Below the pieces are notes generated by a model, which was given only the letters and a program-made list of their open reading frames with translations, was not told where the DNA came from and did no database searches. Shown here piece by piece: positions 15,104 to 59,870 of a DNA stretch of 64,000 bases. Positions within the stretch are counted from its first letter, which is position 1. Each line of letters begins with the position of its first letter. Origin of the DNA: Torpedo marmorata (taxonomy: Eukaryota); the NCBI GenBank assembly GCA_977017645.1, contig OZ360232.1, forward strand, positions 32,674,001 through 32,738,000. Reading direction: 5' to 3'. Position numbers and translations under genes: made by a program.

Positions 15104-15320
15104 TACAGCATGGTAACAGTCCCTTCCAGCCCACGAGTCCATGTTGCCCAAATACACCCATATGACCATTTAACCTATTAACTCGTACGTGTTTGGAATG
15201 TAGAAAGAAACCGGAGCACCTGGAGGAAACCCACTCAGTCACAGGGAGACTGTACAAACTCCTTACAGTGAGCGCTGGATTCGAACCTGCTTTGCTGGCT
15301 TTGTAATGGCATTGTGCTGA
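15104..15320 (-). mobile_element. HE1-like SINE
   Basis: Reverse-complement match to the SINE at 11070; abuts the truncated Gypsy integrase. Confidence 0.85.
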
Positions 15321-30747: not shown

Positions 30748-30776
30748 AAAATGATTTGTATTGTGAATTGTTTCAG

Positions 30777-30873
30777 GCACGTCTTCCATAAACAGTGTGT
30801 TGATCCATGGCTAAATGAACATTGTACTTGCCCTATCTGCAAACTAAACATACTGAAGGCACTGGGAATCTTG
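30777..30873 (+). CDS. RNF130: RNF130 coding exon, second half of RING-H2 domain
   Basis: tgtttcag| ... |gtaagc. Joins the previous exon as AA|G = Lys and reads [32 protein letters not shown]. 97 nt. Confidence 0.95.
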
Positions 30874-33820: not shown

Positions 33821-34031
33821 ATCATTTGAAGTGTGGTTATTATGAACCTCTCCATTTGTCTGAGATTATTGTCATTGGAGATACAAGCACCCAATCTGTA
33901 TTGTGTTGCTGGCTTTGGTAGTCAGAGATTTGAATTGAGGAGATGCCCACACTTCATGTTATAACATTTATTGAAGTAATTTGGTTAATGACATGCACTT
34001 ACATCGTCAATGGTTGATTGATCCTTTACAG

Positions 34032-34236
34032 CCAGACTCACAGTGTGCAGAGAATTCAACACTTGATGTGGATAGAACTGTCAGGGGATCACTTGCCAAT
34101 CACAGATCTATGCCTACTGATGTCACTAGCGATGGTTCCATCAATCTTGAACCACTACGATTCCTGGGGAGTTCGCAAATTGGTCAGGAAGAAGAATTTG
34201 TACCACGAACCAGGGAAATGAATGTCACCGTAACCA
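34032..34236 (+). CDS. RNF130: RNF130 coding exon, post-RING region
   Basis: cctttacag| ... |gtaaga. Reads PDSQCAENSTLDVDR...SINLEPLR...VPRTREMNVTVT, similar to RNF130 ...LGLEPLR...TPRTGEINIAVT. 205 nt, phases match neighbouring exons. Confidence 0.92.
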
Positions 34237-35789
34237 GTAAGATTTTCTGTAATTAGTATTGTTAAGCAAGAAATGCCTGTTTATAGAAGCAGAAAAAACA
34301 CCCATGATTTTCTTTTCCTCTTTCAAAGGAACTATCACTGGCTATACTTCATTTTATCTTTAAAATATTTTTTATTCATATGGTTTGATCAAAATAAATA
34401 ACAATATCCCATAGAGTTATATCATGGCTAATCCCGCTCTATTGTGTGCAACACTTCTTATAAATCACCAATTTACATGAATTTCATTTAATGGTGTGTT
34501 TTATAGAAAAATTACTTTTGCCACCTATTGTTTTAGGCTAACAGGTGTCATCGTGCCTAATTGGGAGGGAGCCCCATCCAACCATTCGTAGACTGCTGGT
34601 GTGAGACTGGATGCTTCCCTTTTCTAAAATGCTGATTGCTTTAGAAGATTGGTGCCACCGAGTGGCTGAAAATAATTCTTACTTCATACTTAAAGTTGCT
34701 TGGTCGTGGGAGGTCAGCCTTGGTTGTATTCCACATTCAATCGTACCTGATTTGATTTGTTTCAGTGCACCTCTACTCCTCCTGTTCCCCACCAACCACT
34801 CCCCCCACCCTTAAAAATTGTTTATTCCATAAGATTGTAATTGTGAATATTTTAAAAAAACACATTTTTATTTCTTTTAAAACATTAGAAATCACTAAGA
34901 TTTTAATAAGAACCATGGCAACTTTTAACATTTCCCAATGTCTGTTGTTTCCTTTTACATTTGTGGCTTTCATATTAAAATCTTTTCTCTTGATTTCTGT
35001 GATACTTCCTAAAATGACTGGATTAGCAGATTGAATTATGGATTGCATGCTACAGCTGTTTGCCTTGAAATACACATCTTCAATCAGACAGATGTATTGA
35101 TTTTATAATTGTGGGAAAACTTTGATGTATTATTAATCCTGGACACAATCTATTATAATATTGGCATGCTTCTGAACTGGTGCCTCGCTGCTTATTCAAC
35201 GGCCTTCTCACTGCTCTAACATAATACTGTTTTGCTGAACATCTTGCTTGCTTTCACTGATCAAACCTCAGTACTGTCGTGAGATTTTATGTGGGGACAG
35301 AATGTGAGAGATAATGGTAAAATACGTGGAACTGACAAAGTATTTCTTCTAAATAAATGAATCTCTGGCTCCTCTAAATGACAGAATTGTTTAATCTCCT
35401 TGCATATTATTATCACAGGATAGATTTAAGGTGATAGCAAAAAGAATCCTTTGGGAAATGAGTTTTTTTAATAAACTGATTTGCTGTGATCTAGAATTGA
35501 TTGTCTGAAAGGATGACAGAAGCAGACTCAATGATAAGCTACAAAAGGGATATTGCGAAATTGCAGAGGCCATGCAAGTAATTGGATAACCTTTCAAAAA
35601 GCAATACTGTAAATGTTTACAAGGTATGCAAAAGCACTTTCAATGAAGTAGTTTCAATAAGAGATGCCCATATTTACATGTGCCTTGAAATTACACTTTT
35701 CCAACTTCAATAATATCATGGGTTTTAAGTGTTTTATTGTTCCCTTTTTCTCCAAATCAGTGCTTTTCATTCGTGCATCTTATACTTAC

Positions 35790-37270
35790 AAAACAGAGGG
35801 AGGCCATTCGGCCCATTGCTTTGATGCCAACTCCCATGGAGCAATTCTATTAGTCCTATTCCCTGTCTCGTTATTTCCCTGTATTGTTGTAACTTATTCT
35901 TGCTCATACTTCTTTATCAATTCCCCTTTCATTCTTCCATAGAATTATATAGTTGTGCTGCACAGAAATGGCCCATTAGCTCAACTCATTCATCTGACTG
36001 AGATGCTTATCCACGGTAATCCCACTTGGCCTGCATTAGACCTATATCCCTCTCTACTCCTTTCTAATCCAAGTACTTGACCATATGCCTTTTGAATGTT
36101 GTAATAGTATCTGCATCTACCACCTCTTCTGGCAGCTTATTCCAAATAACCACACCCTCTGTGTGAAAAACTTGCCCCTAAGATCTCCTTTAAATTTCTC
36201 CCCTCTCATCTTAAATTTGTGAACTTTAATTTACAGTCACCTACCTTGGGAAAGAGATTCTGACTGTCTACTTGACCTATCCCCCTCACACTCTAATAAA
36301 CGTACATAAATCTCTCACCCCTCAGCCTCCCATGCTCCAGTAAGAACAAACCCAGCCTATCCAATCTCTTCTTTCTAGGCCCTCCATTCCAGACAACATC
36401 TGGATGAATCTCTTCTGCACTCTTTCTAATGCAACTACAGTACATCCTTCCGAGACCATAAGACTTAACAGCAGAATTAAGCCATTTGGCCCATCGGGTC
36501 TCCTTCACCATGCAAATCATAGCTGATGTATTTTTCCTCTTAACCCCGTTTTCCTGCTTTCTCCTCATAGCCTTTGGCGCCCTTACAGGCAGATGGGACT
36601 AGTGTGGGTGGGACACTTTGGTCGGCGTGGGCATTGGGCCAGACGGGCCTGTTTCCACGCTGAAGGACTCTGACTCGAGTGAAGAACCTATCAACCTCTG
36701 CTTTAAATCTGCCCAGTGATGGCCTCCACAGAAATCTGTGCAACACATTCTGCAGATTCACCACCCTCTTGCTGAAGACATTTCTCCTCATCTCTGTTCT
36801 AAAGGAACATCCTTTTATTCTAAGGCTGTGGTCTCTGGTCCTGGACTCTTCCCCACTACTGGAAACATCTTTTCCACATCCAGTCCTTTCAATATTTGGT
36901 ATGTTTCAATGAAGTGTGTCGTTTCCCCCCCCCCCCCCTCTGCCCCATCCTTCTAAACTCCAGCTAGTGCAGGACCAGAGCCATCAAACGCTATTCATAT
37001 TGGAGTGTTGTAACCAGAACTGTACATAATAACTTCAAGTGCGGCCAAACTAATGTCTTGTACAACTGCAATTTCTGCCATTAATCTTCGCTAAGGCATC
37101 AATTACAAGTAAATTAACTTGTCTGCATTCCTTTGGAAGGAAACTGGAGCATCCAGAGGACATGGAGGCAGTCATTGCAAGAACATGCATGCTCCCCACA
37201 GGCAGGACCTCTGGTCAGGATCAAACTCATGTCCTTGGTCTTGAGGCAGCAGCACTAACTGCTGTGCCAG
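35790..37270 (-). mobile_element. Nested CR1 3' ends and degenerate SINE fragments
   Basis: LDRLGLFLLEHGRLRG, MRRNVFSKRVVNL motifs; several tail junctions. Confidence 0.65.
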
Positions 37271-37379
37271 AGGGCCAACCTTTCAATTTTTGTTTCTTCT
37301 TTGTGCTTTATTGCGACAGAGCCCATTATTTTAAAAAGGATTTTTTGTCGAAAATGCAGATTGGTCTCCATATCCTTCA

Positions 37380-37520
37380 TGTTCTGATGATGGGTTCTGG
37401 CCTGAAACGTCAACCATTCTTTTTTTTCCTCTCACTGATGCTGCTCGACCCATTACATTCCTTCAGCAGATTATGTGTTGCTCTATATTCCATCATCTGC
37501 AGTCTCTCGTGTGCCTTTTG
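37380..37520 (+). mobile_element. Penelope pLTR
   Basis: CTGATGA-TGGGTTCTGGCCT-GAAACGTC at 37384-37411 plus the pLTR body. Confidence 0.7.
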
Positions 37521-38709
37521 AACTCCATATTTGTAGCTTTCAGCTTTCTTTTTGTTTGTGAGATGTATTTAAGTGACCCAAATACAGTTTATATCATGGT
37601 GATTTTGTGTGGTATTAAAACACACTAAGTTGTTTAATGGTTTAAAAAAAAAAGAAATGCCTCTTTTGGTGAGATGTTCCATAAAGTTGGCAAACTTTTG
37701 AGCTCTTAACCCAATCAATAAGTTATATGAAGAGGTGTGTTTTTCCTTAATTTGTTAATGAATCCAAGTCTGTATACTGAGTTTCAGTAGGAATTTTGAA
37801 CTAATGGCAAAAGACTGAAGTTTTAGTTGCAAACATTTCATGTTATCTTTTAACCATTGCAGTTTTTGACTGCTGGGAATTTAGAGATAAAACGTAACCT
37901 TGAAGTTAAAAGTAAGCGATGATGTTTAGTTCTACTTCATGCAATCTAAATTAAAATTAGTAGTCTTATTTGGTATTAATCCTAGCATTCGTTTTAATAC
38001 AATTTTATTAAAGTCAGATTAGCATCTCCCACACAAGTCTCTCTGCTGTCTGGTAAGCGGACCATGTTTGATTGAAATAATATTTTAAAATATTAGTTGT
38101 GGATTTAAATGTTTTGTTCGATGTTGGGTCTTTGTATTGGGCTTTATGTGAGTTCTTAAAAACCAAATGTGTAAAATAATTAATTTATTGTAATCTCAGA
38201 TTCACTCCCCCATTACTGGAAATACCGCCAGTGTGAATAAGTTTGCAGAGAAGTTAACCCTCTCTGCTAACAGTTCTTCCATTTAAGTTGTGTGATTTTA
38301 AATGGGTACTCTTCTGAAAATGTCCCCTTGGGCTCTGCAGGCAACCAAGAGCTCTTCTGTTTTCATTTTGGTTGGGTGACAACAGCTCTTGGGCTATGGG
38401 AGATGCAGATGCAGCAAAAGATCTATTGGATTAAAGATCTGAGAGCTTATCTGCAGGCATTAAGTGCAGTATAGTGACAGTTTGGACGTGGTTTTGCCCA
38501 GTGAAGGTTGAACGCGGTACATTTCAGGCTGGTTGTTCTTTATCAATGCAAAATAATCAGGGAAGAGGTTTCCTGGGACCCAGGAGTGATCAAATTTTGT
38601 GTGTAGAAAGAGAGATAATGCACTCTGGGAACGTAACATATTGGAAAATGGAATTTTAATTGGGGAAATAGAGTGCAGTGATGTGGCCCTTCCTGATGAC
38701 TGTTCATGA

Positions 38710-40340
38710 GTCATACAGCACTGAAACAGGCCCTTTGGCCCAACTTGTCCATGCCAACCAAGATGTCTTCCTGAGCTAGTCCTTTTTGCCTGAGTTTGGC
38801 CCATGCCTTCTCTAAACCTTTCCTATCCATGAACTTGTGTAAATGTCTTTTAAACATTAAACCCACCTCTACCACTTCCTCTGGCAGCTCATTCCACATC
38901 CCCATCATCTTCTGTGCGGATAAAACTTGCCTCTCGGGTCCCTTTTAAATCTTTCCCCTCTCCCCATACACCTATGCTCTCTAGTTCTAGATTCCCTATC
39001 CTGGGAAAAACTGTGACTATCCATCCTGCATGATTTTATAAACCTCCATGAGGTTACACCGCAGCTTCCTTCTTTCCGAGGTATAGTCCAAGCCTATTGT
39101 TTGCCTCAACCTGTTTAGCACCTTCTCATAACTCGAGCCCTCCAGTTCCAGCAGCAGATTTGAGTGGTACAGTGGATTAACCTGAATGAAAAACTGCAGT
39201 GAATGGTACGCACTGCAGGTTGTGAAGGATGTGAAGATTTAGGGTGGTTGACGAGATGCCAGTCAAACCGGCTGGTGTGTGTGGATGGTGTTGATCCTGA
39301 GTGTTGGGTCAGCAGCCATCCAGGCAAAGGATCACCCATGGAATGGAGATGTTTAAAAGGAGCAGTGTCAACTTATGCCCATTTTTGCAATGTCTTATTT
39401 GTGTAATTCAGAAAGTAAAGAAGTGAGCATGTGACCCAGAAATGCTTAAGTAAATGGGCTATAGTTACAGCTTTGAGAATAGAACTTGCAACCTCTGCCT
39501 GGTGAATACTCTCCCCAAGTGGCAGAATTTGTAGCTCCAATAAAGATATTTCAGCATGGGAAAAAATACGGTTTAATGTACATCCTGACAGTAAGTTTGG
39601 CTATACTTCCAGGACATAAGCACAACAGGTAACTTTAACCTCTTCCAACACCAGAAAATAAAACAGAAATTGTCAGAATATAGAACATTGCAGCACTAAA
39701 CAGGCCCTTCGGCCTACGGTGCTGTGCTGACCTATGTAAACCTACTCCACAATAATATAACTCTTCCCTTCCAAACACCCAAATCCTTCTATTTTTCTTA
39801 CATCCATGTACCTATTTAAAAGTCTTTTAAATTGCACCAGGCTCCACCACCGCCCCAGGCAATGCATTCCAGGCACCTACCACTCTCTGTGTTAAACACT
39901 TGTATCTGACTTCTCCCCTAAACTTCCACTCACCTTAAACAGATGTCTTCTTGTTCTTGCTATTGTCACCCTGGAAAATTTGTTACTCCAAAGAGAAAAG
40001 CCCTAGCTCAGTTAACCTTGCTTTGTAAGACTTGTTCTCCGTTCCAAGCAACATGCTAATAAATCTCCTCTGCACCCTCTCTAAATCTTCCACATCCTTC
40101 CTGTAATGAGGCGACCAGAACTGCACGCAACACTTCAAGTGTGGTCTAACTAGAGTATTATAGAGCTGAAACTTTATCTCATTGCTCTTAAACTCAGTCC
40201 CTCTACTCATGAAGGCCAGCACACCGTTCTCCTTCTTAACCACCCTATCAACCTGTGCGGCAACCTTGAGGTATCTAAGGACCTCTTTGTTCCTCTACTG
40301 TTAAGAATCCTGCCATTGCCCACATACTCCGCTCTCAACT
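38710..40340 (-). mobile_element. CR1 3' fragments (~38710-39150 and ~39680-40340)
   Basis: WNELPEEVVE; LYNTLVRPHLKCCVQFWSPHYRKDVEDLERVQRRF. Confidence 0.8.
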
Positions 40341-40726
40341 TTGACTTTCCAAAGTGCATCAGGGCTGGGTCAGCTCCCAGGTGGACTAGACCACTTGTTA
40401 TTTCATATGTATGTTTGTATTCATAATCAAAGCAGTAGCCCATGCAAAAATTGAACTTAAATTAAACTCGATGTTCTACCTCTCTGATGTCCTGGCATTT
40501 CCTCAGCCTTTTCTTAAATCCTCTTGTTGCAGAAAATTTACATGGCAAACATCTGTCTTTTGCTGCTTGAACTGTGTGGGGCCTACTGCCAATGGCCCGT
40601 GAAGGCATGGTAAATAGAATGGAAAGCACGCAGCATAGACGTGCTGTGGGACTCAGACAGATCTAAATGAACTCCTGCATTGCATTAGTAACAATTGTAT
40701 GTCTATGCTGGAGGCTCACTTTAGGG

Positions 40727-40880
40727 CAGTGGTTCCCAAACTTTTTCTGGCGGCCGTCCCCTTAGCTCCCAGGCCACATCCCTAGCACCCCCCCACACAC
40801 AAACACACACACCACACATACAACGAACACACACCTCTTTCTTCGTATTAGGTCTACTGCAAATTTAAAACAACAACTAT
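40727..40880 (+). mobile_element. Single end of a hAT-Charlie-type element
   Basis: CAGTGGTTCCCAAACTTTTT preceded by the target-like 8-mer CTTTAGGG; partner end not found. Confidence 0.6.
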
Positions 40881-41123
40881 TGTGTCTCGCCCTTGTAACT
40901 TGTAGATAGATACACATCACCTTTTTAATTGGTGTGCCGTGCCTGCTTGTTGCGATACGGGTGGTAGGTACTGATTGTATGAACCCACGAATAAACATCG
41001 ATATTGTTTCGCAAACTTGTATCAGAACATAACTGGTTTGCATGCGGGTGTATGTGTGTCTCCTGTTACGTATTGGTGTCGTGTGTAATTAAAGTTCACC
41101 GTTTCGTACTGACACATAGCGAG

Positions 41124-42092
41124 CAGGGGCGTAGCTAGGTTTTAACGTTAGGGGGAGCAAGAGCACATAAAAAAGGTGCCACGACCACAGCTGTGCACGT
41201 GCACACTTGTTTTGCAACCAGCACGCGCGCGCTCACACATACACACACACACTCTCTCTCACACACACACTCTTAAATTGGCAGCCACAGCTCTGATGTA
41301 CTGGATTTCACTTCAAACGCTGCCCACATATTTTTTACAAAACTGGCTTGACTCTAATGTGCTTTATTTCACTTCAAACACAGACCCATCCCCACCAGGT
41401 GGGATGACTGGGCCGGGAGGCTTGCTGAGCAGAGCAGGCGGGACGGTCCGGCCTCGCTGCCCAACAACATGGTCCCATCACAGGATCAATCGCGAGGACC
41501 ACAGACCCGCCGTGGATGAGCGAGTTCTGCCCCACAGCCACCAAGCACACCTACACATGCCCAAATGTCACGAGAAAATTACAATCTTTCTGCACTAGAA
41601 CATCAAAAGACATAACGTGGCTCGTTTAGTCTTGATTACAGTAAATCTTCAGCTATCGTATTTCAGCTGACCACCGAATCCAGTACTTGCCTTGACTGCA
41701 TACACCTTATTCTCAGGGTGTTTTTTCCGAGCCAGGTACACTTTACCGAATGCCCCACGGCTGATGGGTTTGATAATAACGAAGTCTTCGATGCTAGGGG
41801 CTGCCGGCACCTTGATTGCTTTCACATTCCTGTACAGGACGGCAGGACTAGCATCATCGGTGCTGGGAACCTCCATCTCCCAATCGGATCCCACAGACCA
41901 TTCCCCGCCGTTCCAATGGAACACGGGACGCTCTCCGATTGAACGCTTGCTCGCGGCTTGCCGCGCAGCTGCTCTTCAAAATGTTTTCAAAAGTTCCACT
42001 GAGGGCCGTGGGCGCTGCAGGGCTGAAAAGGCACCACTTTTGAAAAATTTGCTTAGGGGGAGCAGTCACTCCCCCCCCCAGCTACGCCCCTG
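41124..42092. mobile_element. Non-autonomous hAT (Tip100-like termini) carrying captured host DNA
   Basis: 13-bp TIR CAGGGGCGTAGCT / AGCTACGCCCCTG; 8-bp TSD ATAGCGAG (41116-41123) / GTAGCGAG (42093-42100); subterminal TTAGGGGGAGCA near both ends. Confidence 0.88.
41691..41876 (-). pseudogene. MASTL: Isolated first coding exon of MASTL (Greatwall kinase) inside the hAT element
   Basis: MEVPSTDD...AIKVPAAPSIEDFVIIKPISRGAFGKVYLARKKHPENKVYAVK. KPISRGAFGKVYL is the Greatwall/Rim15 Gly-rich loop signature. Similarity ends at the VAIK-equivalent Lys, followed by AG|GCAAGT. Confidence 0.9.
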
Positions 42093-42139
42093 GTAGCGAG
42101 GATTGTCACTATTTGAACCCTTCGAACTTGTTTTCCTAC

Positions 42140-43170
42140 CACAGATTGGCGCTACGAGAATGGTTCAAGGAAAAACAACCGGGCAATTGGGTGGGAGCGA
42201 TGTTCTGGCAAAAGGCTAAAATGAAGGGCCCCACGTGTACAGGGGACAGAGTATCGTGGTCGATCAAAGATACTGCTGGGTTCGGCAGTCTGGCCAGTGT
42301 GCTGGAGGAGCATCACAAGCCGATGGAATGGTCAGATAGTGTAGACTTGTAAGGGATGGAGATTGGCCACCATCTTGTGTCCCTCCTCAAATAATCGGAG
42401 TTCACGGGATTTAAGGGGAGCCATAGAGGGATCTTTTGGCTGCTGACAGTCTTCCTGCGGCACCGACACGAAGCCTTGCGACGAAAGGAGCACGAGATCA
42501 CCCAGTTAAAATTTGAGGTGTAAACGCTGCTGCAGCGTTGCTCCCCAATGGGGAAACCTGGGCCAGAGAGAATAAAGGCACGCAGCTAGCATGCAGGCTG
42601 GTCAATATATGGCAGTTTGAGCTGTGGCCACATGGCTGCTCCAGATCTGGGACGCGGTTGGTACCGGCGTGAACGTACCCCATCGGAAGCAGGTATCTGG
42701 GTGGGTTATCCAGTCAGGAAGCCATGAACAACGGCCTGCGGATGCCGTCTGAGGCCATGGAGGGTAACACATCCCTGTGGGTCCGGGAAGAAGCTGCTGT
42801 CCGGGTGACGGGCCCCTCCTTGCTGCAGTGGGATTTACAGTCGCGAACAGAGCCAGAGTGGCGTACGGTAGAGGATGTGATTAGGGCCCTTAGTGACTGG
42901 GCTCTAGTTACTGGACTAAATGAGGGCGCCCACGGCCGTGAGTCCCCTGAGGGCTCCGGATTACCGCCACAGTGGCGGGACACCTGGTTACCACCGTCCT
43001 TCCCTATCTGAAGGTGGTACCATTAATCAAGGGCTGTCACCAGCTAAATATAATTCAGGGACAGTGGCGGGAGAAGATTTCACGTTACCACTAAAGAGTA
43101 TTACGGTAGTTACAAGCAGTTCAGTGTGCCGATTCAAGCAGAGTGATGATCATGACACCAAATGAAAGGA
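42140..43170 (+). mobile_element. Degenerate ERV-L-like (class III) gag
   Basis: Ordered motifs AVATWLLQIWD, RYLGGLSSQEAMN, TSLW....AV and EWRTVEDVIRALSDWAL resemble ERV-L Gag blocks recalled from memory; frameshifted. Confidence 0.6.
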
Positions 43171-44221
43171 GGATTCTGTGAGCATACCAGACAGGAGAGG
43201 GATACCAGGTTCACCACCCTTGAGGACTAAGCTGTCTGAACTGAGGGAGAAATGAAAAGCCAGTGGAGGGACATGAAGGAACGTGTGCCTCTAAGGACGT
43301 TCACTCAACTAGTCAGGTAATTTTGACACTGCACTGATGTGATCCATTAAGAAATGTGGAAGACCAGCCATCTGGGTGAGTGAGCTGACAACCTAGGCCT
43401 ATTTCACTGGTGGGAAGTTTATAGCATATGATATTCTAATGATAAGCAGATCAATTCGAGTTATATTAACAGGTTTCCTTTACCCAGTAAACAACAGTTC
43501 TCAGCCATATCCCAAGGATTCTGTGAACAAATAGGCAAGGATAAGAGTGAGAAACGAGGATAACAAAGCCCCTGCCTCTGATTGGGACCATTTAGCTTGG
43601 ACCTGCACCATGGCAGTTACTGAGGGGCAGTATTCCACAACTGCACCAGAGAAATACTGTATCACAGCTACCCCGACCCGTGCCAATGCGATTAACCATT
43701 AATGTGTACAATCTGCTATCTCACCTCTTGTATTTTCCCATCAAAGGATATGTGACTAGGTAAGAGGATAATATTAAATGTTTATGCAAGAGACTAGATG
43801 GAAATTGTGGTAAACAATTCCCTCAGACAACATCTCCATTATTGTGTTGCTCGTTTTAGACATATATCTAAAGTACTGGAACACTGAGTGGAGCTGTTGG
43901 GACGCTTGAATGATTTGCCAAAGTGTTATTATGTCCCAACACAAGGGAACGAGGAGATCAAAAACAAATACCCACTTACAAGTTCATTCATATTGGAAGG
44001 ATATCGGGCTGAACACACAGATACTCGTGGTTCAGATAGTTTCTGATTCTCTCTTCACTGTCGTTCTGTTTTGCATGACATCGGCTGCATTAGTAGAGCA
44101 TGGATATTAGAGTGTGCTCAAGGACAAGGCTTGGGAAAGGACATCCTCCTTTCAATCACATCCTGGGATAATACAGAAAGGGTTAATCCAGCTGGGTGAG
44201 GAGTGCATTTTATTAGCTAAA

Positions 44222-44422
44222 CCCAGTCTGCTGGAGGAGCTCAGCAGGTCGAGCATCATTGGGAGGAAACGAAAGGTCATCATTGCGGTTGGAACCCTTC
44301 AGCAGGTCACCAGTCCACATGAAGGGTTCTAGCCTCCCACTGATACTGCTCGGCCCGCTGAGTTCCTCCAGCAGATTATGTTTAGCTTCAGATTCCAGCT
44401 TCTGCAGTCTCCTGTGTGTCTC
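44222..44422. mobile_element. Inverted pair of Penelope pLTR fragments
   Basis: tctgctggaggagctcagcaggtcgagca near 44227 versus tgctcggcccgctgagttcctccagcaga near 44347. Confidence 0.7.
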
Positions 44423-45892
44423 CAGTGCACTTTGTAGGTTCCCTGACACTCTGCGTAGTTGACATCCAAACAGAGCTGACTATGACTTGCCTGTTCGGGA
44501 GGCAACAGGGGAGCCGTCGCTTAGTGGAGTGGTGGAAATGAGAAATGTACTAACCATAAACACCAGCCTCTAAGATTCTTAAGTTAATTGTATGAGTTGT
44601 AGTTGTATAACCTAATAATTGAATATACTCCAGTATAAAAGTATACTCTGCACTGTTAAAATGCTGTGAACTAACCTGGCAAAGCTTGCTGAGATATTTG
44701 TCTAAACTCTAAAGTAAGAATTTCAGGGACCAGGAATAGGTGAGTCATTAACCCAGTACTGGCTGTTCACCAGACGGTCCAAGGGCATTTTGATAAGACA
44801 GTTTAGAAAAACAATGTTCATTTCTTTTATACATTGAGCATTGGAAAGTTAATGGTGAAGAAAGGATTAGCACAGACAGATGGGGGTCCGGTTGAAGGAT
44901 GGAGACCTCTGTTCCAGTCTACATGCAGGATGTTCAGAACAACATGGAGTGTGCTATTGCCTGTCCACTGGCTCATTTATCTATAGTTACTTCACTATCC
45001 ATCAGCCATTGTCTTTGTTTTAAATGTGCATAGAAATCGGTGCATTCTGATGATCTGGGAGACTGGCTCATCAGAGATTCTTCTCGCATGCTCATATCAT
45101 TCAAATAAAGACTTGCTATACTGGTACCTCCAGACTCTGAGTGGTGATTCATCCCCAATATTCAACAGATTTTTGAAGAATTTTTAAATTCTTTTTGAAG
45201 GCACGATTCTGGTTTTTTTTTTAAATGGTTATTTTTATTTTCTTTCTCTTCTGGGATTTTAAATATTTCTCACGTTACAAGAATCGGATGCCCTCTGATA
45301 TTTGCACCGATGAGATGAGAGTTTATTGTCATATACATACATACAACATACACCCAAATTCTTACTGGCTGCAGCCAAACAAGGACGTAAGATACACCAA
45401 CGGCAATAGTCTAAAAATGTACCACAATATGCCAAGACAGAAAAAAGGTAATAGAAATGAAAGGATAGATAAATAACTATTCACAATTACAGTTAGTGGG
45501 TTAGGGTTAGGTGTAACACATGCAACACAGCCAGTCACATGTTTGTTTTGTAGCTTCACAATCCTTAAAAGAAATGTCAGACTGAGAATAATTGAATCAT
45601 GCACAATTAAAGCACAAAAAAGGATTATTCAATCAATTGTGTCCATACCGATGAAAAGAAAAGTTATCCTCCCTGATCCCATACCCCAGTTAATTAGGAT
45701 TTTAAATTTCTGACTTCAGCATTTTTTCAGGCATCAGATTTCAACCTTGCACAACACTTCAGACGAAAAACTTCTCTTTGGCTTTCTAATAATCCTTTTA
45801 CATTTTATATTAAATCTGTGCATCAGTTATTGACCTCCCAGCTAATGTTCCACATGTGCAATACACAAAAGTGCTGGAGAAACTCAGCAGGT

Positions 45893-46531
45893 CAAGTCAA
45901 GTCACCTTTATTTGTCGTTCATTACCATATACACAGTAAGACGAGATAGCGTTTCTCCAGGACCATGGGCAGATGTACATAAATATCATAATACAATATA
46001 AAAAACTATAGCACGCTAATACACATATATATCTAGGAATTGAGGAGCCCGATGGCTTGGGGGAAAAAACTGTTGCACAGTCTGGACGTGCGAGCCCGAG
46101 TGTTTCGGTACCTCCTTCCAGGTGGCAAAGGGGAAAACAGTTTACCAAAGGGGTGTGAGAAGTCCTTCACAATGTTTTTAGCCTTCCTCATGCATCGTGT
46201 GTTGTAGATGTCTGTCATGGTGGGGAGAGAGACTCCAATAATTTTCTCCGCTGCCCTCACTCTCCTCTGCAGGGTCTTTCGGTCCGAGGTGGTACAGTTA
46301 CCAAACCAAGCGGTGATGCAATTGCTCAGAATACTCTCAATACATCCCCTGTAGAATGTAGTAAGGATAGGGGGTGGAAGATGAACTTTCCCCAGCCTTC
46401 GCAGGAAGTAAAGACACTGCTGGGCTTTCTTGACTATAGAACTGGTGTTTAGGGACCAGCTGAGACTCTCCGCCAAGTGCACTCCAAGAAACTTGGTACT
46501 CTTTACGACCTCAACGGTAATGCCGTCCATG
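45893..46531 (-). mobile_element. Rex1/Babar-like LINE 3' end inserted into a Penelope pLTR
   Basis: KFLGVHLAESLSWSLN...KKAQQCLYFLRRL...FYRGCIESILSNCITAWFG...NSFFPQAIGLLN; GGTCAA at both junctions. Confidence 0.85.
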
Positions 46532-47620
46532 GTCAAAGGACGCAGCGTATGTAGGAAGCAAAAAGATATCACCACCTTTTCGGGCCTGAGCCCTCCGTCA
46601 TGAACAAAAAGCAGACAGGCTTCTGAATAAAAAAGGTGGAGGGAGGAGGGAATGGGCTGGGGGAGGGGGGGGTGGGGTGTGAGTGGGATGTGTGGAGCAC
46701 AAGCCCACAGGCAAGAGGTCCTAGGTGGATATGGGCAGGAGGGCAGAAGAAAAAAAGCTGAGGTGGGAGGGGTAGATATTTGAATGGAGAGGGAAGGGAG
46801 TGGGAGCTGGAGGAGAGGAGACAGGGATAAGGAGAGAGAGAGACGGGGAGGGACCGAGCAAAAATAGGAGTAGTCCATGTTAATACCATCTGGTTGGAGA
46901 GTGCCCAGACAGAATATTAGGTGTTGTTCCTCTAATTTGTGGGTGGCCTCAGTTTGGTAGTGCACGAGGCCATGGACAGACATGTCAGTGTGGGAATGGG
47001 GTGTGGAATTGAAATGGTTGGTTACTGCGAGGTCCCCGTTATTGCAGCAGACAGCGAAGGTGAGCAATGAAACGATCTCCCAGTTTGTGTCCAGTCTCTC
47101 TGTTGTAGAGGAGGCCACAATGGGAGCACCGGATGAAGTAGATGACCCCTGCAGTGTTGCTTCACTTGGAAGAACTGTTTGGGGCCCCAAATGGTGGTGA
47201 GGGAGGAGGAGGTGTGGGCACGTGTAGCATTTCCTGTGGTCACAAGTGTAGGTGCCGAGGGGGCGATTAGTGGGAAGGGATGAGTGGGTGAGGGAGTTCC
47301 AGAGGGAGCAGTACCTGTAGGAAGCGGAGAGGGGAAAAAAGCAGATGATGTGTCTGGTGGTGGGATCAATTTGTAGGTGGCAAAAATTGAGGAGGATAGC
47401 TAATATGTTGGATGCGGAGGCAGGTGGGGTGGTAGGTGAAGACAAGGGAAATCCTGTCTTTGTTGCATATAGGGGCAGAGGGGGCCAGGGCAGATCTGTG
47501 AGAAATAGAGATGTTGCTGAGGGCTGCGTTGATGGCAGTTGAGGAGAGGCCATGTTTTTATGAAGGAGGACATCTAGGAATGTTCTGGAATGGAAGACCT
47601 CATCCAGGGAGCTGATGCTA
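46532..47620 (-). mobile_element. Penelope-like element 3' part (GIY-YIG region plus pLTR), frameshifted
   Basis: Similar to 22721-23572; NHFNSTPHSHTDMSVHGL...LEEQHLIFCLGTLQPDGIN. Confidence 0.85.
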
Positions 47621-47994
47621 ATTGGAGATCTCATTGTGTTTTTTCCTGTCTGCTCTGCTTAAACCTCATTATTTTATAGATTTCTCTGTGCTATGCTATG
47701 TAGAGATTGCCTTTCCTGGATAACACACAAACTGTATCTCGATTATACAACTTAAAAGTGCCTGGAACCTCAGGATGCATGTCCCCAAAGCAGTTTTTTT
47801 TTAAACTGGGAGCAGAAATGATTGAATTACTCTGTCAACTCTTTCACATTAAAACATGTTCAGAGAAACATTTGGAGAACAAATGCTTGATGTGCAGTAC
47901 AATCTCAGTGTTTATTCCAATGCTACCTCCCTAAAAATAGCCCTGGAGAGTTATGGCTTGGTTTTATGAGCTTTTGGAGAAGAGATTTTAATTT

Positions 47995-48222
47995 TTTTAA
48001 TTTAGAGATACAGCATGGTAACAGGCCCTTCCGGCCTATGAGCCTACGTTGCCCAAATACACCCAATTAACCTACTAACCCTCTATGTCTTTGGATCATG
48101 GGAGGAAACCGGAGCACTCAGAGGAAACCCACGCAGACACGGGGAGAACGTACAAACTCCTTACAGACAGCACCGGATTTGAACCCGGGTCACTGGCGCT
48201 GTAATAGCTTTGCACTAACCAA
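47995..48222 (-). mobile_element. HE1-like SINE
   Basis: Reverse-complement match to the SINE at 11070. Confidence 0.85.
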
Positions 48223-49589
48223 CTGGACAATGTTGGATGGGAAAAAAAGTGTCACCTGGAATGCAGCAAGTCCAAAGCTTGAGATTGAGTGCACAATCCA
48301 GATAGGAAAAGTGCAATTTCCTGCAAATCTCAATGATGTTCAGAACGGAAGCTATTTGTTGTGTTATTCTGCCACAGGGTTCCCAGTGCCATCACTGGTC
48401 GAAGACGTCACTCAGAGAGTGGATATTTGTATTAAATTATGACTGGCAAGCAGATGGGAAGATTATTATCTGAATCTAGATAGTCCATCGTACCAGGAGA
48501 AAAGGCCAAATATCAGTCCTCTGTAAAAGCATTAAAAGAAACAAGGATAAGAACTTGCAAACAAAAATAGGGAAAGATGTATGAGGTGCCCTGGCGACAA
48601 ACTGTACTAATAACACAGCACTGAGGGAAGAACAACTTCTGCCATTCCTTTCCAATTAGTGCAATGAAGCAGGCGTAATGTAAATGTAGGACAATATAAA
48701 CTTTGCATTTGTTTTTTTTAACCAGAGTTTGGCAATGATCGAAGATATAGATTCGTTCAGCCCTGTGGTCTCTATGAAGCTTTCATATTTTTCTTTCATT
48801 TTAAAAGAAAAACTTGACCAAGCTGTCTGGTAGCCGATATTACAGGCTGTGATAACCTTCCAATATCCTTCATTCTTCAACGTAGAAAGTGATTGTCTGC
48901 TGACTTGTGAAATGATAACTAGTCTCAAGACTATATGGACACATGCTGTGACTTTCTGCTAAGGTTCGTTAAAGATCAGCATTTATGTTCGTGTGTTTGC
49001 AATAAGACAGTCAGATCTGTGATCATATCCTTTGGCACAGGTGGAGAATTGAATGAGAGACAAAACAACAGATATAGTTACCTTCAAGCACATGCTGAAA
49101 TCCTAACTGATCTCTTTCTGAATAAACCTAATGATTGATTCATTTTATTGTAATTGAATTCATAGATATAGTACTTCAGAGGAGATAAGTGGTCGGCACA
49201 ACATCGTGGGCCAAAGGGCCTGTACTGTGCTGTAATGTTTTATGTTCTCTATCTGGCAAAGATGGATTTCCCTGTCAATCTTTTTTTTTTAAACTGTAAT
49301 GATTTGGAAATGTGCAGACTCGGGAGTAATTTCAGCCGGTGTCATATAACTATTCCCAACTGTTGTTTAGAGGTTGTAAAGTTGGACTAATGTTTCCATG
49401 TGGTGTGTGATTTCTTTTGATGCCTAATAATCTTGCTCTCTACTTCCTCACACTGCACCCTCATTGATTCTGCTTCACTGTCTGACCCTGGGTGTCTCTC
49501 TTGTGCTGCTGCCACTGCTTCTGTGTCAGGGAATCTCATCATTTTTCACTTGCTGTTCCTGGAGTGATTTACCTTTCCTTTGTTAACAG

Positions 49590-49680
49590 AGGAATGGCTT
49601 ATTATTGCAAGTTTTGGCGTGCTTAGTGCTCTCACTCTCTTCTACATGATAATCAAAGCAACAACAACCACAGCAGACAA
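49590..49680 (+). CDS. RNF130: RNF130 coding exon, C-terminal hydrophobic segment
   Basis: ttgttaacag| ... |gtaagt. Reads (K)EWLIIASFGVLSALTLFYMIIKATTTTAD, matching RNF130 [25 protein letters not shown]. 91 nt. Confidence 0.92.
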
Positions 49681-50266
49681 GTAAGTATTTAGAGTTTTAC
49701 AGTTTTGTTTCATAAATTATGCTTTGTCCAGCTGACATTTCAAACTTTAACCCATTCGAAAGTGACCTGTGTGTACTTTCCTAGTGAGAAAGAGTTTTGC
49801 TGGCTATTAAGTGCACATATTGTTGCGCACTTGGCCTAAGGTGTTTTTAAACGGCATTCAGATCTCACCAAATGAATAATAAATCATTCGAGGATGAATC
49901 ACACATTTAGCTTTTAGGATTGACCAAAATCTTCAAAATTTTCTGCAGAGTGATGATATAGTTTATCACAGGAACTTGTACCATGTGTTTCTGCTAGGCC
50001 CAGTAAGAATCAATTCAGCAGACAAGCCAAACTGATTGTGGATACAAGAAGTTAATGCGGTGCTTTCAGGTTTAATTAGACACAGATTTTCTTCATTGCA
50101 CTGTGGTATAAAATCATTAACAATTTACAAATCTGGCTTCAAATGGGTGTATAATCTGATTTGTTTGTGCTGAATGAGATTTTAGGCTCAGGTAATTCTG
50201 TCATACAAAGGTCGGTAGCAAGAGAGCAGAATAGTACAATTTTCTTTACGGCAAGGAGCCTCACTG

Positions 50267-53345: not shown

Positions 53346-56300
53346 CTGCCACGATGAGATGCATTGGATGTGAAACCCATCCAGTGCAACAGACGTTTAT
53401 ATTGGTGCTCAGTCATGGATGAGTTTTCATTGATTCTGGAGTCGGTGAACAATAGATTTTCTGATGCACACACAACTGCTCGTTAATAACTGCTTACTCT
53501 TTCACGCCCTGATATATTTAAGAAAAACTAACTGATAAGTGGCTTCTTGTTTATTCTCCCCCCATGATTGTAGTACATTATTAACAATAAAACTGTTCTG
53601 TCAAGAAATGTCTGTTAAGTGCTAGAGAAGTAGGAGAGAAGCAATTATTAGTCACTCGACCATTGAGTTTCAACTCTACGAACATGGGCTATTCCATGAA
53701 TTCATGACACGTGATTCACATCTTAACTCCACCCATGTCTTGGCTCCTTGTCACTTAATACCATTGGATAGCAAAATTCTGATTAATAATTGAGCATCTT
53801 CTGTCGTAGAGGTATAATAACTTTTGTGTGAAATGGTATTTCATAACTTCACCAAGCTATGATTTAATGATTGTAATTATTTGGCCTGAGCTCTTGCACT
53901 GTTGTTAAAAGATTATTTCTCTAAATAAACAAAAATATTTCTCACATCCTGAAAATCTTGATCAGTATTGGTAATTTAAAGTGGGATTGAGGAGGAACAT
54001 TCAGAATCACTCTTCGAGATGTAGCTAGCTTCTAATTAATTTCATTGTTAGAATAATTCAAACAAATAAATTGCTGCCACTCGACTATCGAAAGCACTTG
54101 AATACATTCTGTCCATTAGAGTTTGTAAGTGCAGAGGATTTAGGCATGTTATGGAATTTCTGAGCATTATGTACCTGAACTAATCCATAAGAGTCAGATT
54201 AATGTTCTAAGATACATTTAATGAAGTTAAAAATGCTTGTTAAACGAATAGTATGATTCCCATTTTAGAAATGAAAATCAGACAGCACAGTGGTGAAAGA
54301 ATGAAAATGAAAGAAGATAATTGTACATGTAAGTACAAGAGACTTCCAACTTGTTAATTTTAAAGGTAATTGATAAGGTTTAAAAATTGTAGATGCTGAA
54401 AACCTGAAATAAAAACAGAAAATAAAGAGGAGTTCAGTGATGTTGTTGAGGATATTGGAAGTCCAGATGCAAAGTAAAGGTCCAACACAAGAGCCAACAA
54501 CTCTTTTTCTATGGTTGAATAAATCCTTTGATTATCATTGAACTTCTTCGAGGATGGTCAATGTCCTCTTCGTTCTCATTCTGTAACAGCACCGTGCCCA
54601 CAGCTTCATCGCTGGCATCCACGGCTAAAGAAAACGGCTGTTCTAAATTAGGTGTCTTAAGCACAGGTTGGTGGCATAACATGGCTTTCAATTTGACAAA
54701 TGCTTCCTGACAACCTGTCGACCATACAAATTTTTCTCTCTTTCTAAGCAAATTTGTGAGAGGGAGCGCAAGATCAGCAAAGTTTTTACAGAACTTGCGG
54801 TAGTAGCCAATCATTCCCAGGAACCTCCTCAGAGTTTTCTTACCAGTTGGAACAGGGAACTCGGAAATAGTCACAACCTTTGCCTCTACTGGCGCCAACT
54901 GCCCCTGTCCTACTACATAACCCAGATAAATAACAGTAGCATGTCCAAACTCACTTTTACTTAAATTAACTGTGAGATTTGCTTTGGACAGTTGTTTGAA
55001 CAATTGTTTTAGCTCAAAGACATGCTCTTCCCAGGTCTCACTACTTACAATTAAATTATCAATGTAAGCACCTGTGTTTTTCAACCCTTGAATTACTGAA
55101 TTAATCATTCTCTGAAATGTTCCTGGAGTATTCTTCATACCAAAAGGCATAACATTATACTCATACAGCCCAAAAGGTGTTACGAATGCAGAAATCTCCC
55201 CAGCCTTTTTTGTCAAAGGAACACACCAGTACCCTTTCAATAAGTCAATTTTAGTAAGAAATTTGGCCTTCCCCACCTTGTCTATACAATCGTCTATTCT
55301 AGGAATAGGATAAGCATCTGTCTTTGTTACAGCATTTACTTTCCTATAATCAGTGCAAAACCTAACTGTTCCATCAGGCTTAGGCACTAAAACTCAAGGG
55401 GAACTCCAATTGGAAGTAGACTTTCGAATGATAATGTTCTTTACCATGTAGTCAATTTCCTGATCTACCAGTTTGCACTTTTCCGCATTGATTCGATAGG
55501 GATGCTGTTTTATCGGTCTTGCATCTCCTACATCCACATCATGATAAGCGATGGACATTTTCTGAGGCACATCGGAAAATAAATTTATAAATTTTAAAAA
55601 TAACTGACTCATCTCTTCCTTTTCTAAAGTTTTCAGATGAGCCAACTTTGTCTCCAGATTGCGCAAAATCATGGAATTTTCTAACCTTGGGCTTATCAAT
55701 TTCTGTGTCCCATGACCCTCTCTGAAACTGGTTTTATCTGTCTCCTCCTTACCCTGATCAATAACCAGCACCTCTGGTAAATGTTCAGTCCCTTTTTGCG
55801 GTACCTGTTCAAAATATGGCTTAATCATATTCATATGACAGACCTGTGTGTCTCGTCTGCGATTAGGTGTTTCTATGACATAAGTGACATCATTAATTTT
55901 TGACTTAACTCTATAGGGTCCTGAAAATCTAGCACTAAGAGGATTTGAATGGATGGGAAACAGAACTAATACGTTCTCACCAGGTTTAAAAGTTCTCATC
56001 TTAGCCTTTCGATCATACCAAACCTTCATTCTCTGTTGAGTGGCCTTTTAATTCTCCTTTGCCATCTCACAAGCCCTATGCAACCGATCCTTAAATTTGG
56101 AAACATAATCTTACAGATTTAAATGCACATCACGATTAATCCACTGTTCTTTTAATAATCTTAAGGACCTCTCACCTCATGTCCGAAAACTAACTCGAAT
56201 AGACTAAAACCAAGTGATTCTTGGACAGACTCCCTCGCTGCAAATAACAAGAAATGAACCCCCTCATCCCAATCCTTTTCCTTCTCACAACAATAGGTTC

Positions 56301-58329
56301 TAATTATGTTTTTCAAAGTCGAATGGAACTTCTCCAAGGCCCCTTGACTTTCTGGATGGTACGCAGAAGATACAATCTGTTTATCTCCCAGTCTATCAAC
56401 CACTTGTTGGAAAACGCCTGACATGAAATTACTGCCCTGATCTGATTGAATTTCCCTTGGCAAACCTACCAAGGTGAAAAACTTTACCATAGCCTTTACA
56501 ATTGCTTTTGCTTTAATGTTTCTCAGAGGAATGGCCTCTGGAAATCTGGTGGCTGCACACATAATTGTTAACAAATACTCATTCCCCGCTTTGGTTTTGG
56601 GCAATGGGCCAACACAGTCCACAATCACTCTCGAGAAAGGCTCACTAAAAGCAGGGATAGGTTGCAAGGGTGCCACCGGGGGACCCTGATTAGGTTTACC
56701 CACCACCTGACAAGTGTGACAGGCCCGGCAAAAGCTTACAACCTCCCTTCTCAAACTGGGCCAATAAAATTGTTTCATTATCTTCCTTATAGTTTTCTTC
56801 ACCCCAAGGTGACAACCTAAGGGTGTGCTATGAGCCAAAGTTATTATTGCATCCCTATATACTTTAGGGATCACAACCTGCTGCACTACTGCCCATTCTT
56901 CATTGACAGGAACATCACATGGTCTCCACTTTCTCATAAACACCCCATCTTTTTCATAATAACCCACTGGCACCTTTTTAATCTCCTCTTCAGTGAGAAC
57001 CTTATCCCTCACCTCAGCAAGATCAGGATCGTCCTTTTGCCTTGCTATTAACTCCTGTCGGGATAGTGACAAATCTGTGCCTTTAGGTGTCTTATCAGTA
57101 GATGGATGTAACACAGGAGATTGCTCAACCTTTTCCAGGTGTTCTTGATTATCACTGACTTTTTCTTTCACCAATTTATTTTCCACTGCCTTCTCTACAG
57201 ACATTTTTCTTAGACATGGCCCTGGTTATGGCACATGCCGGATAAATATCAGTCTTTCTCTGACTTATCAATGACTGGCTTAGTGGTCATTCGCACTGCA
57301 GGAACTACTTTACCCTTGGCCAAGTCATTGCCTAGCAACAGTGAGACTCCTTCTACTGGCAACTCTGATCTCACTCCTATTATAACAGGTCCTTCCACCA
57401 AGGTTGAGTCCAACACTATTTTGTGCAAAGGAATGGACTCAACATCACCCCCAATTCCTTTAATTAAATTCATGTCACCGGTGTCAGTAGCTTCACAAAA
57501 TTCCAAGACACTATCTAACACAAGTGACTGAGCAGCTCCAGTATCTCGCAAGATTTTCACTGGAACTTGTTTTGATCCTGCCTTAACTGAAACAAAACCA
57601 TCAGTCACAAAAGGTTTAAATACATCCCTAACTTTGTCAGTAAATTTATCTCCTTCCTGGGTGTTATGCCTCTTCTCACTCTGAATACAAGCATTAGGTG
57701 TTGCATCCTTTTCTCTCTTCTTTTTCAACACTGGACAGCTTGCTATCATATGACCAGCCTTCTTACAGTAGTGGCAAATGGGACCTGAAGGGTTTTCCCT
57801 TTTCCACTTTCCTTCATCTCTTTCCTTAACACCACTTCCAAATTTACTTTCCACTTGCTTGGGATTATCCACAGTGACCTTTTGGAAAATTCTGCCTGAC
57901 GTCCACTTAGGCTTGTGGGTTAAAGCATATTCATCTGCTAACTTAGCTGAATTTTGCCAAGTTTTCACCTCCTTTTCATCTAAGTATGCCTTAATATCCT
58001 CAGGAACACACCTTTTTATCTCCTCGATTATTATCAATTCTCTGAATTGATTGTAATCATTGTTTACTGCCTTAGATGTGCACCACCTGTCAAAACACAC
58101 AACCTTTTCATAGGCAAACTCTGTATAAGATTGGGTTGCTGATCTTTTTAAATTTCTAAACTTCTGTCTATAAGCCTCTGGAACTAACTCATAAGCCTGG
58201 AGTATAGCCTTTTTCACCGTTTCATAATCAGCAGCTTGCTCCATGGTAAGAGTAGAATAAGCTTGCTGAGCTTTTCCTTTTATTACACTTTGTAACATAA
58301 GAGACCATTGGTCTTGTGGCCATTTTAAT

Positions 58330-59175
58330 TTCAAGATTCAAGATTCAATTTATTCAAGTTCAATTTATTGTCATACCAATAAGACAGTGTCATATACCAC
58401 AAAATTTCTTTTTGCCTGCTGCAAGGCAGACAGATTCGCCACTGGCAGAAATTGCCTAAGCGCCTCTAACATTCCTTACAGTCAGAGAAAGAGAAGCAAA
58501 AGAGAGTCCCCCCAGAGTCACCGAGTGTCCATAGATTCGCCTCCAGCGCTTCCGCAGCCACACAGAGTCCAGTCCAAACGATCGGCATCCTGAGCTCCAG
58601 ATCCGAACCTCCAACACGGTCAGGTCGCCCTCGGCACCCCCTCACATCCCGGTTCTGATACCTGGTACTCCTCCAGCCAGTTCGAGCCAACCTCCAGCAG
58701 TCCGCAGCCCGGCGTGAGTCCCCCCGACAGCAGTCTCCAGCAGCCCACAGCCTCCGCGGGTTCCTCTCCTCGAGTCGCCAGCAGCCCACCGCATGCACTG
58801 GTCCTGCAGCCTCAGAGCCCCACACCGGTCCGCTGCTGTGCTCACCGTCCCGTGGGTCGTCTCCTCCGCTTCTCCTTCTCAGACGGGGGTGATCTTCCCG
58901 TCCACTGGTGCCCTGCTCCAGTCCCCCACTTCCCCGGAGTCTGCAGCCCCTCGTGGCTGCTGCCGATTAATAGGCGCTGCCATCTTGTGCGCAGACCCCG
59001 CGGTCGCGGGATCTCAAATAAAACCACCGTCGGCTCCTTCAAAGCCCGTGCGGAACCGATGGCAGTCGACTGGCGGCTGGACCCCGCGGGAGCGCTGTAT
59101 CTCCACTCCCACACTCCCCGCGGGTCTGCACCAGCGGCAGCGCTGCCGCTACAGCGGCTCCGGCAGCGCCGCCAT
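58330..59175 (-). mobile_element. ~830-bp non-autonomous LINE-dependent element, copy 2, inserted in Gypsy gag
   Basis: Closely similar to 32161-32987; removing it restores the gag frame FEKVAV-KLKWPQDQW. Confidence 0.9.
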
Positions 59176-59870
59176 CACAGCCACCTTCTCAAAATGCTGG
59201 AAGTACTTATCTATTTCTGCCTCCTCAAATGGAGGAACCAACCTAACTTCTCTACTATCCAAAAACCCCTCAGCAGGATGACGAATTTTATCTTGGTGCT
59301 CTGGTTTCCTCTCATTTTCCAACTTTATCTTTTCCAGCTCATATATCCTATTTTTCTCCTCGTTCTCTAAGTCTAATCTCTTTTGTTCCCTGGCTACCTC
59401 CAATTCTAATTTATTTTGTTCCAATTCCCTGTCTAATTTCTTTTGTCCCAATTCCCTGTCTAATTTCTTTTGTTCCAATTCCCTGTCTAATTTCTTTTGT
59501 TCCAATTCCAATTTCTTTATTTCCAACTGTATGTTTTCAAAAGGTTTACCCTTGGGAAACTGCTCTAACACGCTCTCCTCAAACCTTTTTTCTTTTATAT
59601 AGTATTTGACAAGTTTTCTCCCAATCTCTGCCTTTTTCATTGATGGTTTTACTGAAGCAATGACCAACTCTGTTGCTATAGCCACTAACTGTTCCTTTTT
59701 CGCCTTTTTTAAAGTCACAGGTTCAGGTGATTCCAAAAATTTTTCTACATCCATTGTTGCTGGTTTTTTGTTACACACACACTAGCTTTTTAATTATCTT
59801 TACAAAAGGAATGTCTTAAACCAGACTGGGATTCCTTCAATTACCAAGATGGATTTTTAATTCAATCCAA

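Follow-up and report, generated by a model that had tools for sequence, protein, structure and literature searches.

In the window, by which we mean the whole 64-kb stretch of DNA analysed here, lies a 969-bp DNA transposon that carries the first exon of the kinase gene MASTL. We believe it very probable that this element is a non-autonomous hAT holding pieces of a Rab gene and of MASTL, that it belongs to a family which has taken up pieces of at least six genes by serial break repair, that it was amplified mainly as the passenger of a second hAT and that its cargo has no function. Capture of gene pieces by transposons is a familiar habit in plants for which reports from vertebrates are rare, and here we have a prolific Pack-MULE-like hAT family in which the intermediates are preserved.

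The first-pass annotation of this DNA had described a 969-bp element with 13-bp terminal inverted repeats (TIRs) and an 8-bp target-site duplication matching at 7/8 positions, and this was borne out in the window: the TIRs are perfect and the duplication reads ATAGCGAG on the left and GTAGCGAG on the right (Table 1). The left 8-mer is common to the nested copies described below and is present once in outer elements that are empty. The assignment to a hAT family was also correct, as the same left end is found on two relatives, L115 and L116, in which a decayed hAT transposase follows (PF05699, E 8.8e-14; PF14291, E 1.3e-9). A TIR of 13 bp falls within the 5-27 bp of hATs, and a matched 8-mer, distinct as in other hATs, flanks 34 of the 58 free elements of this inner family that we read, the nested copies sharing one. 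Pack-MULEs have a 5' and GC bias and multi-locus cargo and, in the strict sense, the long TIRs and 9-11-bp duplication of Mutator elements; the inner element works like a Pack-MULE, but is not one by the length of its TIR (13 bp) and its duplication (8 bp). The label Pack-type hAT holds, with host cargo between hAT ends and a TIR-free parent elsewhere. The element is also multi-copy, as had been suspected: chance origin is excluded because there are hundreds of copies and none in reversed-pattern controls. Two features went beyond the earlier description, namely that the element is nested in a larger transposon starting at 40727 and that 41385-41527 derives from a second gene. Of 41200-41690, for which the annotation had raised MASTL intron 1 or a second captured piece, 41539-41690 only is intron 1, the remainder consisting of element arm, a 61-bp repeat and Rab-gene remnants.

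Table 1. Positions of the nested transposons and their cargo in the window.
Feature	Position	Strand	Basis or remark
Outer non-autonomous hAT, Buster/Charlie-type ends	40727..43014	+	copy without right TIR and about 590 bp
Left target-site 8-mer of outer element, CTTTAGGG, nnnTAnnn type	40719..40726	+	right copy lost with truncation
Outer left TIR, CAGTGGTTCCCAAA	40727..40740	+	right TIR TTTGGGAATCACTA in other copies
Outer-element interior, broken reading frames	42101..43014	+	
Inner Pack-hAT, 969 bp	41124..42092	+	
Left copy of inner 8-bp duplication, ATAGCGAG	41116..41123	+	most copies read GTAGCGAG
Inner left TIR, CAGGGGCGTAGCT	41124-41136	+	TIR comparison; first 65 bp 94% identical to L116
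61-bp repeat, about 1.5 units	41291..41386	+	array of same repeat in sister element L125
Intron 1 remnant of two-exon Rab GTPase gene	41385..41418	+	parent G000:C31:24.83 Mb
3'UTR remnant of same Rab gene	41416..41527	+	ends at TTC where MASTL inserted
MASTL intron 1, 5' part; GC splice donor at 41690-41685 reads GCAAGT	41539..41690	-	alignment to parent
Coding part of MASTL exon 1, an open frame of 62 codons here	41691..41876	-	protein matches
MASTL sequence upstream of ATG, 131 bp	41877..42007	-	alignment to parent
Inner right TIR, exact complement of CAGGGGCGTAGCT	42080-42092	+	
Right copy of inner duplication, GTAGCGAG	42093..42100	+	
RNF130 intron holding element	34238..49592	+	removed by splicing in run X3

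The 62-codon peptide has its best matches in elasmobranch MASTL over its full length (top 81%, Pristis) and matches human Greatwall in PDB (E 1.9e-10), which upholds the reading of 41876-41691 on the minus strand as an open MASTL N-terminus. A splice donor does follow the exon; it is a GC donor (AAG/GCAAGT), not GT, and the parent has the same. The first intron of the MASTL gene is itself GC-AG and about 14.4 kb long (G000:C5:74,269,715). No further MASTL exons were found in the 64-kb window, in agreement with the first reading; exons 2 onward lie at G000:C5:74.21-74.26 Mb, a query with MASTL residues 63-220 returned one set of near-identical exons, on C5, and these other exons and exon 1 all fall within 120 kb around that locus. 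Window positions 41539-42007 align with C5:74,269,573-74,270,039 at 89% identity over 481 columns, intron included. The parent stretch comprises 143 bp of intron 1, the donor, 186 coding bases and 138 bp upstream, is CpG-rich (observed/expected 1.05 versus a median of 0.385 in 234 background tiles) and has no TIR at either breakpoint. Judged from its sequence, the MASTL cargo is unspliced genomic DNA, and retention of the parental intron supports the earlier proposal of capture at the DNA level rather than retroposition. At 13 of the 15 listed positions that differ from the parent, 7 free and 45 nested copies have the same letter, with scattered exceptions, and they share one breakpoint; there was therefore one MASTL capture. 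Upstream of MASTL, at a distance of 11 kb, there is a short match to the left arm of the family; having neither TIR nor cargo, it was set aside as a candidate for the capturing element.

The second gene came to light through a loose end in public run X3 that traced to one locus only, on C31, where the last of the two exons of a Rab gene lies; window positions 41385-41418 and 41436-41502 derive from this gene. Its nearest PDB matches are Rab31/Rab22A only, and we take it to be RAB20-like. A search with the Rab exon yielded Rab-only free elements with their own duplications (L307, L308 and L309), which hold the intron, last exon and 3'UTR of this gene, as well as free forms with both Rab and MASTL (L313 and L151). 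In the precursors the Rab 3'UTR reads GTGTTC-GAGAAC, whereas in the MASTL-bearing forms ~780 bp of MASTL sequence lies between the two halves. Since free Rab-only precursors exist and MASTL sits inside their Rab 3'UTR, the captures were serial. The insertion site is a short palindrome, TTC stands on both sides of the insert, and the MASTL parent also has TTC at the left junction. Later forms have lost most of the Rab exon and taken other arms; one of them, L160, has its own duplication and aligns along most of its length with the element of the window.

The inner family carries pieces of at least six host genes. Its left end gave 390 exact matches, the first 30 of which comprised 14 nested and 16 free elements. 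In the 58 free elements, a set that leaves out three tandem repeats of one and in which many were chosen to avoid known junction matches, we found MASTL in nine, a kringle exon in five, an M1 aminopeptidase exon in two, an RCN1 exon in two, an FKBP4 exon in one and transposase remnants in seven, together with five cargo types lacking a matched source, one of them with CCAAT boxes. The kringle and M1 cargos were identified by Pfam (PF00051 and PF17900, respectively) with PDB matches besides, FKBP4 by a short PDB match (E 0.002), and RCN1, carried in L172 with its own duplication, by RCN1 matches. Direct genome searches gave 122 candidates for the kringle cargo, 74 for M1 and about 17 long matches for FKBP4, with own duplications at 20 of 30, 11 of 20 and 4 of 20 loci. 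Parents were verified for three cargos only: MASTL, Rab and kringle. The kringle parent has an intact exon and is neurotrypsin-like, because SRCR-like exons come after it. L214 was tried as the M1 parent and not confirmed, since it has a frameshift and the motifs of later exons did not turn up within 60 kb; no FKBP4 parent was found among 20 loci, and the RCN1 parent was likewise not located. In some elements (L115, L140 and L148) the C-terminal remnants of two distinct hAT transposases occur together, a sign that hAT families have recombined or nested with one another. At L146 (G000:C5:117.777-117.783 Mb) four inner-family copies with a CCAAT-box island stand in tandem, about 1.8 kb apart. 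The cargo types for which no parent was found, at least five in all, occur in L114, L123, L141, L148, L152, L156 and relatives, and several of them look like promoters or 5'UTRs.

What moves at this locus is a larger unit. The first search for the element in the 6.2 Gb genome scored 40 of 2285 first-look candidates, all of which, the window itself apart, were near full length at 87-94%. Both TIRs were called in 26 of the top 30 loci, and all 26 have the same flanks and 8-mer. Homology among the loci runs from 40727 to 43014 and, in other copies, further on; 17 of 20 outer copies read over 10 kb have the right TIR and 16 a duplication of 6-8/8, mostly distinct, full copies being mostly 2.8-2.9 kb. 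Given shared inner flanks and distinct outer duplications, the mobile unit here is the ~2.85-kb outer hAT and not, as first supposed, the 969-bp unit, whose nested copies do not show the distinct 8-bp duplications that the annotation had called for. T is found at position 4 in 40 and A at position 5 in 42 of 45 distinct outer 8-mers, as in the nnnTAnnn consensus given for Buster target sites (PMC3517528). Because no autonomous partner or Buster transposase with the outer ends was found in 20 further stretches, the Buster/Charlie class of the outer element rests on its ends and its 8-bp nnnTAnnn duplication. Ten frames of the outer interior gave no Pfam family and only Atlas matches below usable recognition, while a protein search yielded an unnamed protein at 89%, which probably translates this very element, and one further weak match. 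By eye, a LINE or gag source was considered as a candidate.

Exact patterns counted 151 empty outer sites with a single 8-mer, 196 filled left junctions and 249 exon matches, parent included. On six contigs, 38 junction copies include 22 that match the exon pattern as well, and from this we estimate about 430 MASTL exon copies (340-610), and 27 of 30 sampled exon copies are nested in the outer element. One nested copy was multiplied again in a block of >55 kb, 98-99% identical between two unplaced contigs. The nested element of this block, which has an open MASTL frame, is found again with its flank at all 20 such loci examined and on at least 20 contigs (L315-L334 and L335-L346; e.g. C1984 and C309); these copies come on top of the estimate, because none of the 20 matches the exon pattern. 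The block contains a 246-codon frame that we take to resemble choline dehydrogenase; rDNA was considered and rejected, with no Rfam match in 120 kb. A related, rearranged block copy lies near the end of C5 (L040, C5:283.5 Mb). L296, L298 and L352 are shorter elements (1.2-1.4 kb) with the outer element's ends and other interiors, L298 holding a further TIR-like piece, so that the outer family, too, may collect cargo. In four outer copies (L008, L015, L018 and L023) the insertion point is identical within one short interspersed repeat, with a flank that ends in GCGCTAACC or a similar sequence, which would be either a target hot spot or another ride.

We propose the following history for this family. 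There was a hAT with CAGGGGCGTAGC ends and a DUF4371 plus hAT-dimerisation transposase, as its decayed remnants show, and derivatives with their own 8-bp duplications carry the Rab intron, last exon and 3'UTR. A break in such a cargo-bearing hAT would likely have been repaired by synthesis from an open CpG-rich locus, so that the ~780-bp MASTL piece, observed at GTGTTC^GAGAAC, may be a templated insertion made by synthesis-dependent repair or template switching with 3-bp microhomology; the 3-bp junction matches on which this mechanism is based can arise by chance. Transposase supplied in trans would have moved the product. Deletions and arm swaps with sister elements, visible as structures, would afterwards have led to the short form. 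The short form occupies one site of the Buster-type element, which suggests one insertion followed by spread through the second transposase, and on the nested structure this burst would have done most of the amplification. CpG-biased, unconstrained decay of the copies is observed; they would by now be methylated and inert.

Two points in this history could be read otherwise. Nascent unspliced RNA in place of DNA as the repair template would explain a bias to transcribed 5' ends, and five of the six identified cargos are indeed first coding exons, four with donor and intron start. However, the longer free MASTL forms reach 441 bp beyond the ATG on its upstream side, the orientation of the cargos varies (MASTL, FKBP4 and RCN1 one way; Rab, kringle and M1 the other), and those cargos that were compared with a parent showed neither a spliced junction nor a poly-A tail, so we regard an RNA template as very unlikely. 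The empty outer elements, for their part, could have arisen by precise loss of the inner element. Empty and nested copies are of the same age (divergence 2.5% and 2.3%), their star tree, built from the 8 empty and 18 nested copies that were complete enough among 15 and 20, has one diagnostic column and does not fix the order of insertion and loss, and the 8-bp direct repeat could guide a deletion. Even so, precise loss seems highly improbable when L160 and L153 are free elements that carry this same short MASTL piece between duplications of their own, when empty sites hold exactly one 8-mer, and when the diagnostic letter is common to 7 of 8 empties and lacking in 17 of 18 nested copies. Gain and loss alike require one insertion of the inner element.

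The MASTL copies decay neutrally. In 52 pooled copies covering the exon, CpG sites diverge from the column majority by 13% and all other sites by 2.2%. Synonymous and non-synonymous changes outside CpG number 53 and 151, against 50.5 and 153.5 expected, counts that are non-independent through shared ancestry and drawn from samples biased to little-diverged, young copies; over all sites dN/dS is 0.81, with 123 synonymous changes versus 107 expected. Fifteen copies are frameshifted, three have stops and 33 are open with an ATG, and all 16 indels of the coding part shift the frame. The coding piece gave no sign of purifying selection in this pooled test, which is blind to single co-opted copies, and the cargo is most likely functionless.

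That some copies have been put to use, serving as mobile first exons or supplying antisense or small RNAs that regulate MASTL, is in our view distinctly unlikely. The open copies just mentioned, the donor dinucleotide kept in 51 of 52, the open-frame copy within the repeated block, and element-derived contigs over the exon in run X3, which holds spliced RNF130 RNA, would all suit such a role. Against it, substitutions fit neutrality, no coding indel spares the frame, the RNF130 mRNA skips the intron (splice joint 34236 to 49590), and X3 contig 41466-41713 crosses the GC donor unspliced in a run in which ordinary RNF130 intron was assembled too. These contigs place the element in an RNA library but do not demonstrate a promoter. 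Part of the element is present in twelve public runs from six organisms, and no run among them is on record as RNA. The promoter part of the cassette that the first-pass annotation had envisaged is not supported as stated, this form holding only the short stretch upstream of the ATG listed in Table 1, and a chimeric or antisense function has no support so far, with neutral decay and no spliced joint from the GC donor among the rows listed (unstranded contigs without start or level). A full Pack-MULE-like hAT system that samples CpG-island first exons, stacks them, swaps arms and hitch-hikes, some of its cassettes starting chimeric transcripts or small RNAs against parent genes, is unlikely, if worth stating: several hundred ready-made ATG-exon-donor cassettes would then have been seeded in the ray lineage. 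The open frame of this copy might also suggest a true nested gene, a processed pseudogene or an artefact of assembly, but the window lacks further exons, the intron is retained, and there are hundreds of dispersed copies, with nested and empty forms also found in contigs of public runs from other organisms, four runs having been compared; such an origin is scarcely conceivable.

By what route cut-and-paste transposons take up host DNA is still debated, with gap filling and template switching as the candidates (PMC8277862); one reason is that there are few animal cases and that most of these are single-copy. In the account of Tan et al., 2021 (PMC8277862), hATs are the commonest carriers of animal Pack-TIRs (208 of 370), which show short microhomology, and multicopy Pack-TIRs amount to four cases in 100 animal reference genomes, with an example of three copies and none in elephant shark; the multicopy cases favour GC-rich pieces. 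The family described here is similar in being a TIR element with a captured genomic gene piece, TIR-free parents (MASTL, Rab and kringle) and short microhomology. Its cargo is unspliced, with an intron in the MASTL and Rab pieces and a donor plus following sequence in those of M1, FKBP4 and RCN1, and transposition after capture is evident from own duplications in other cargos, in the outer carrier and in the free MASTL forms L096, L104, L151, L153, L160 and L173. In contrast to what that survey describes, hundreds of copies of one cargo, tens of others and serial captures are found here. The survey's pipeline, as described, required a unique best parent match and relied on annotated consensus TEs, and for this reason high-copy families may have been missed; our data suggest that high-copy vertebrate Pack elements are under-counted.

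Plant Pack-TYPE elements, including Pack-hAT, as presented by Gisby and Catoni, 2022 (PMC8903248), share with our family many cargos per family, several genes per element, multiplication by transposition and shuffling between members, while here the host is a vertebrate and amplification has mostly been by riding a second hAT family. FB4, by comparison, is reported with a 9-10 bp duplication and ~700-bp TIRs (PMC8277862). Bat Helitrons such as HelibatN3, which carry promoter, 5'UTR, first exon and part of intron 1, with about 1000 copies for NUBPL (Thomas et al., 2014, PMC4224331), likewise combine a vertebrate host, 5' bias and sequential capture, but they are rolling-circle elements without TIRs or 8-bp duplications, whereas ours are cut-and-paste hATs. 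The outer element resembles the Buster (Charlie) hAT MITEs described in PMC3517528 in its short TIRs, 8-bp duplication, central TA and lack of a transposase, and differs in being 2.85 kb long and carrying a second hAT. No report of the family or of a MASTL capture was found in a literature search whose scope left most subscription papers, and also Repbase and Dfam, outside. One assembly holds the cargo-free precursor, the first-cargo precursor, the doubly loaded form, deletion derivatives, empty and filled carriers and parent genes; with all of these at about 2% non-CpG divergence, breakpoints, order and CpG-island bias become measurable over many captures. On the practical side, hundreds of MASTL exon-1 copies will be a source of error in this lineage for read mapping, for primers and for gene annotation.

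The host gene was recognised from RNF130 exons on the plus strand (2588-2674, ~30775-30873, ~34029-34238 and ~49592-49681), and the MASTL exon lies on the minus strand within an intron, antisense as first described. Among the matches, the RNF130 piece is closest to Narcine (94%), as is the RCN1 piece (90%). The piece at window positions 54256-54367 matches, in two parts separated by a frameshift, the alternative C-terminal exon of an RNF130-like isoform from Narcine. Broken gag-pol frames, Gypsy-like LTR retrotransposon when judged by eye, occupy 54509-59781 and 15263-16874 (minus strand).
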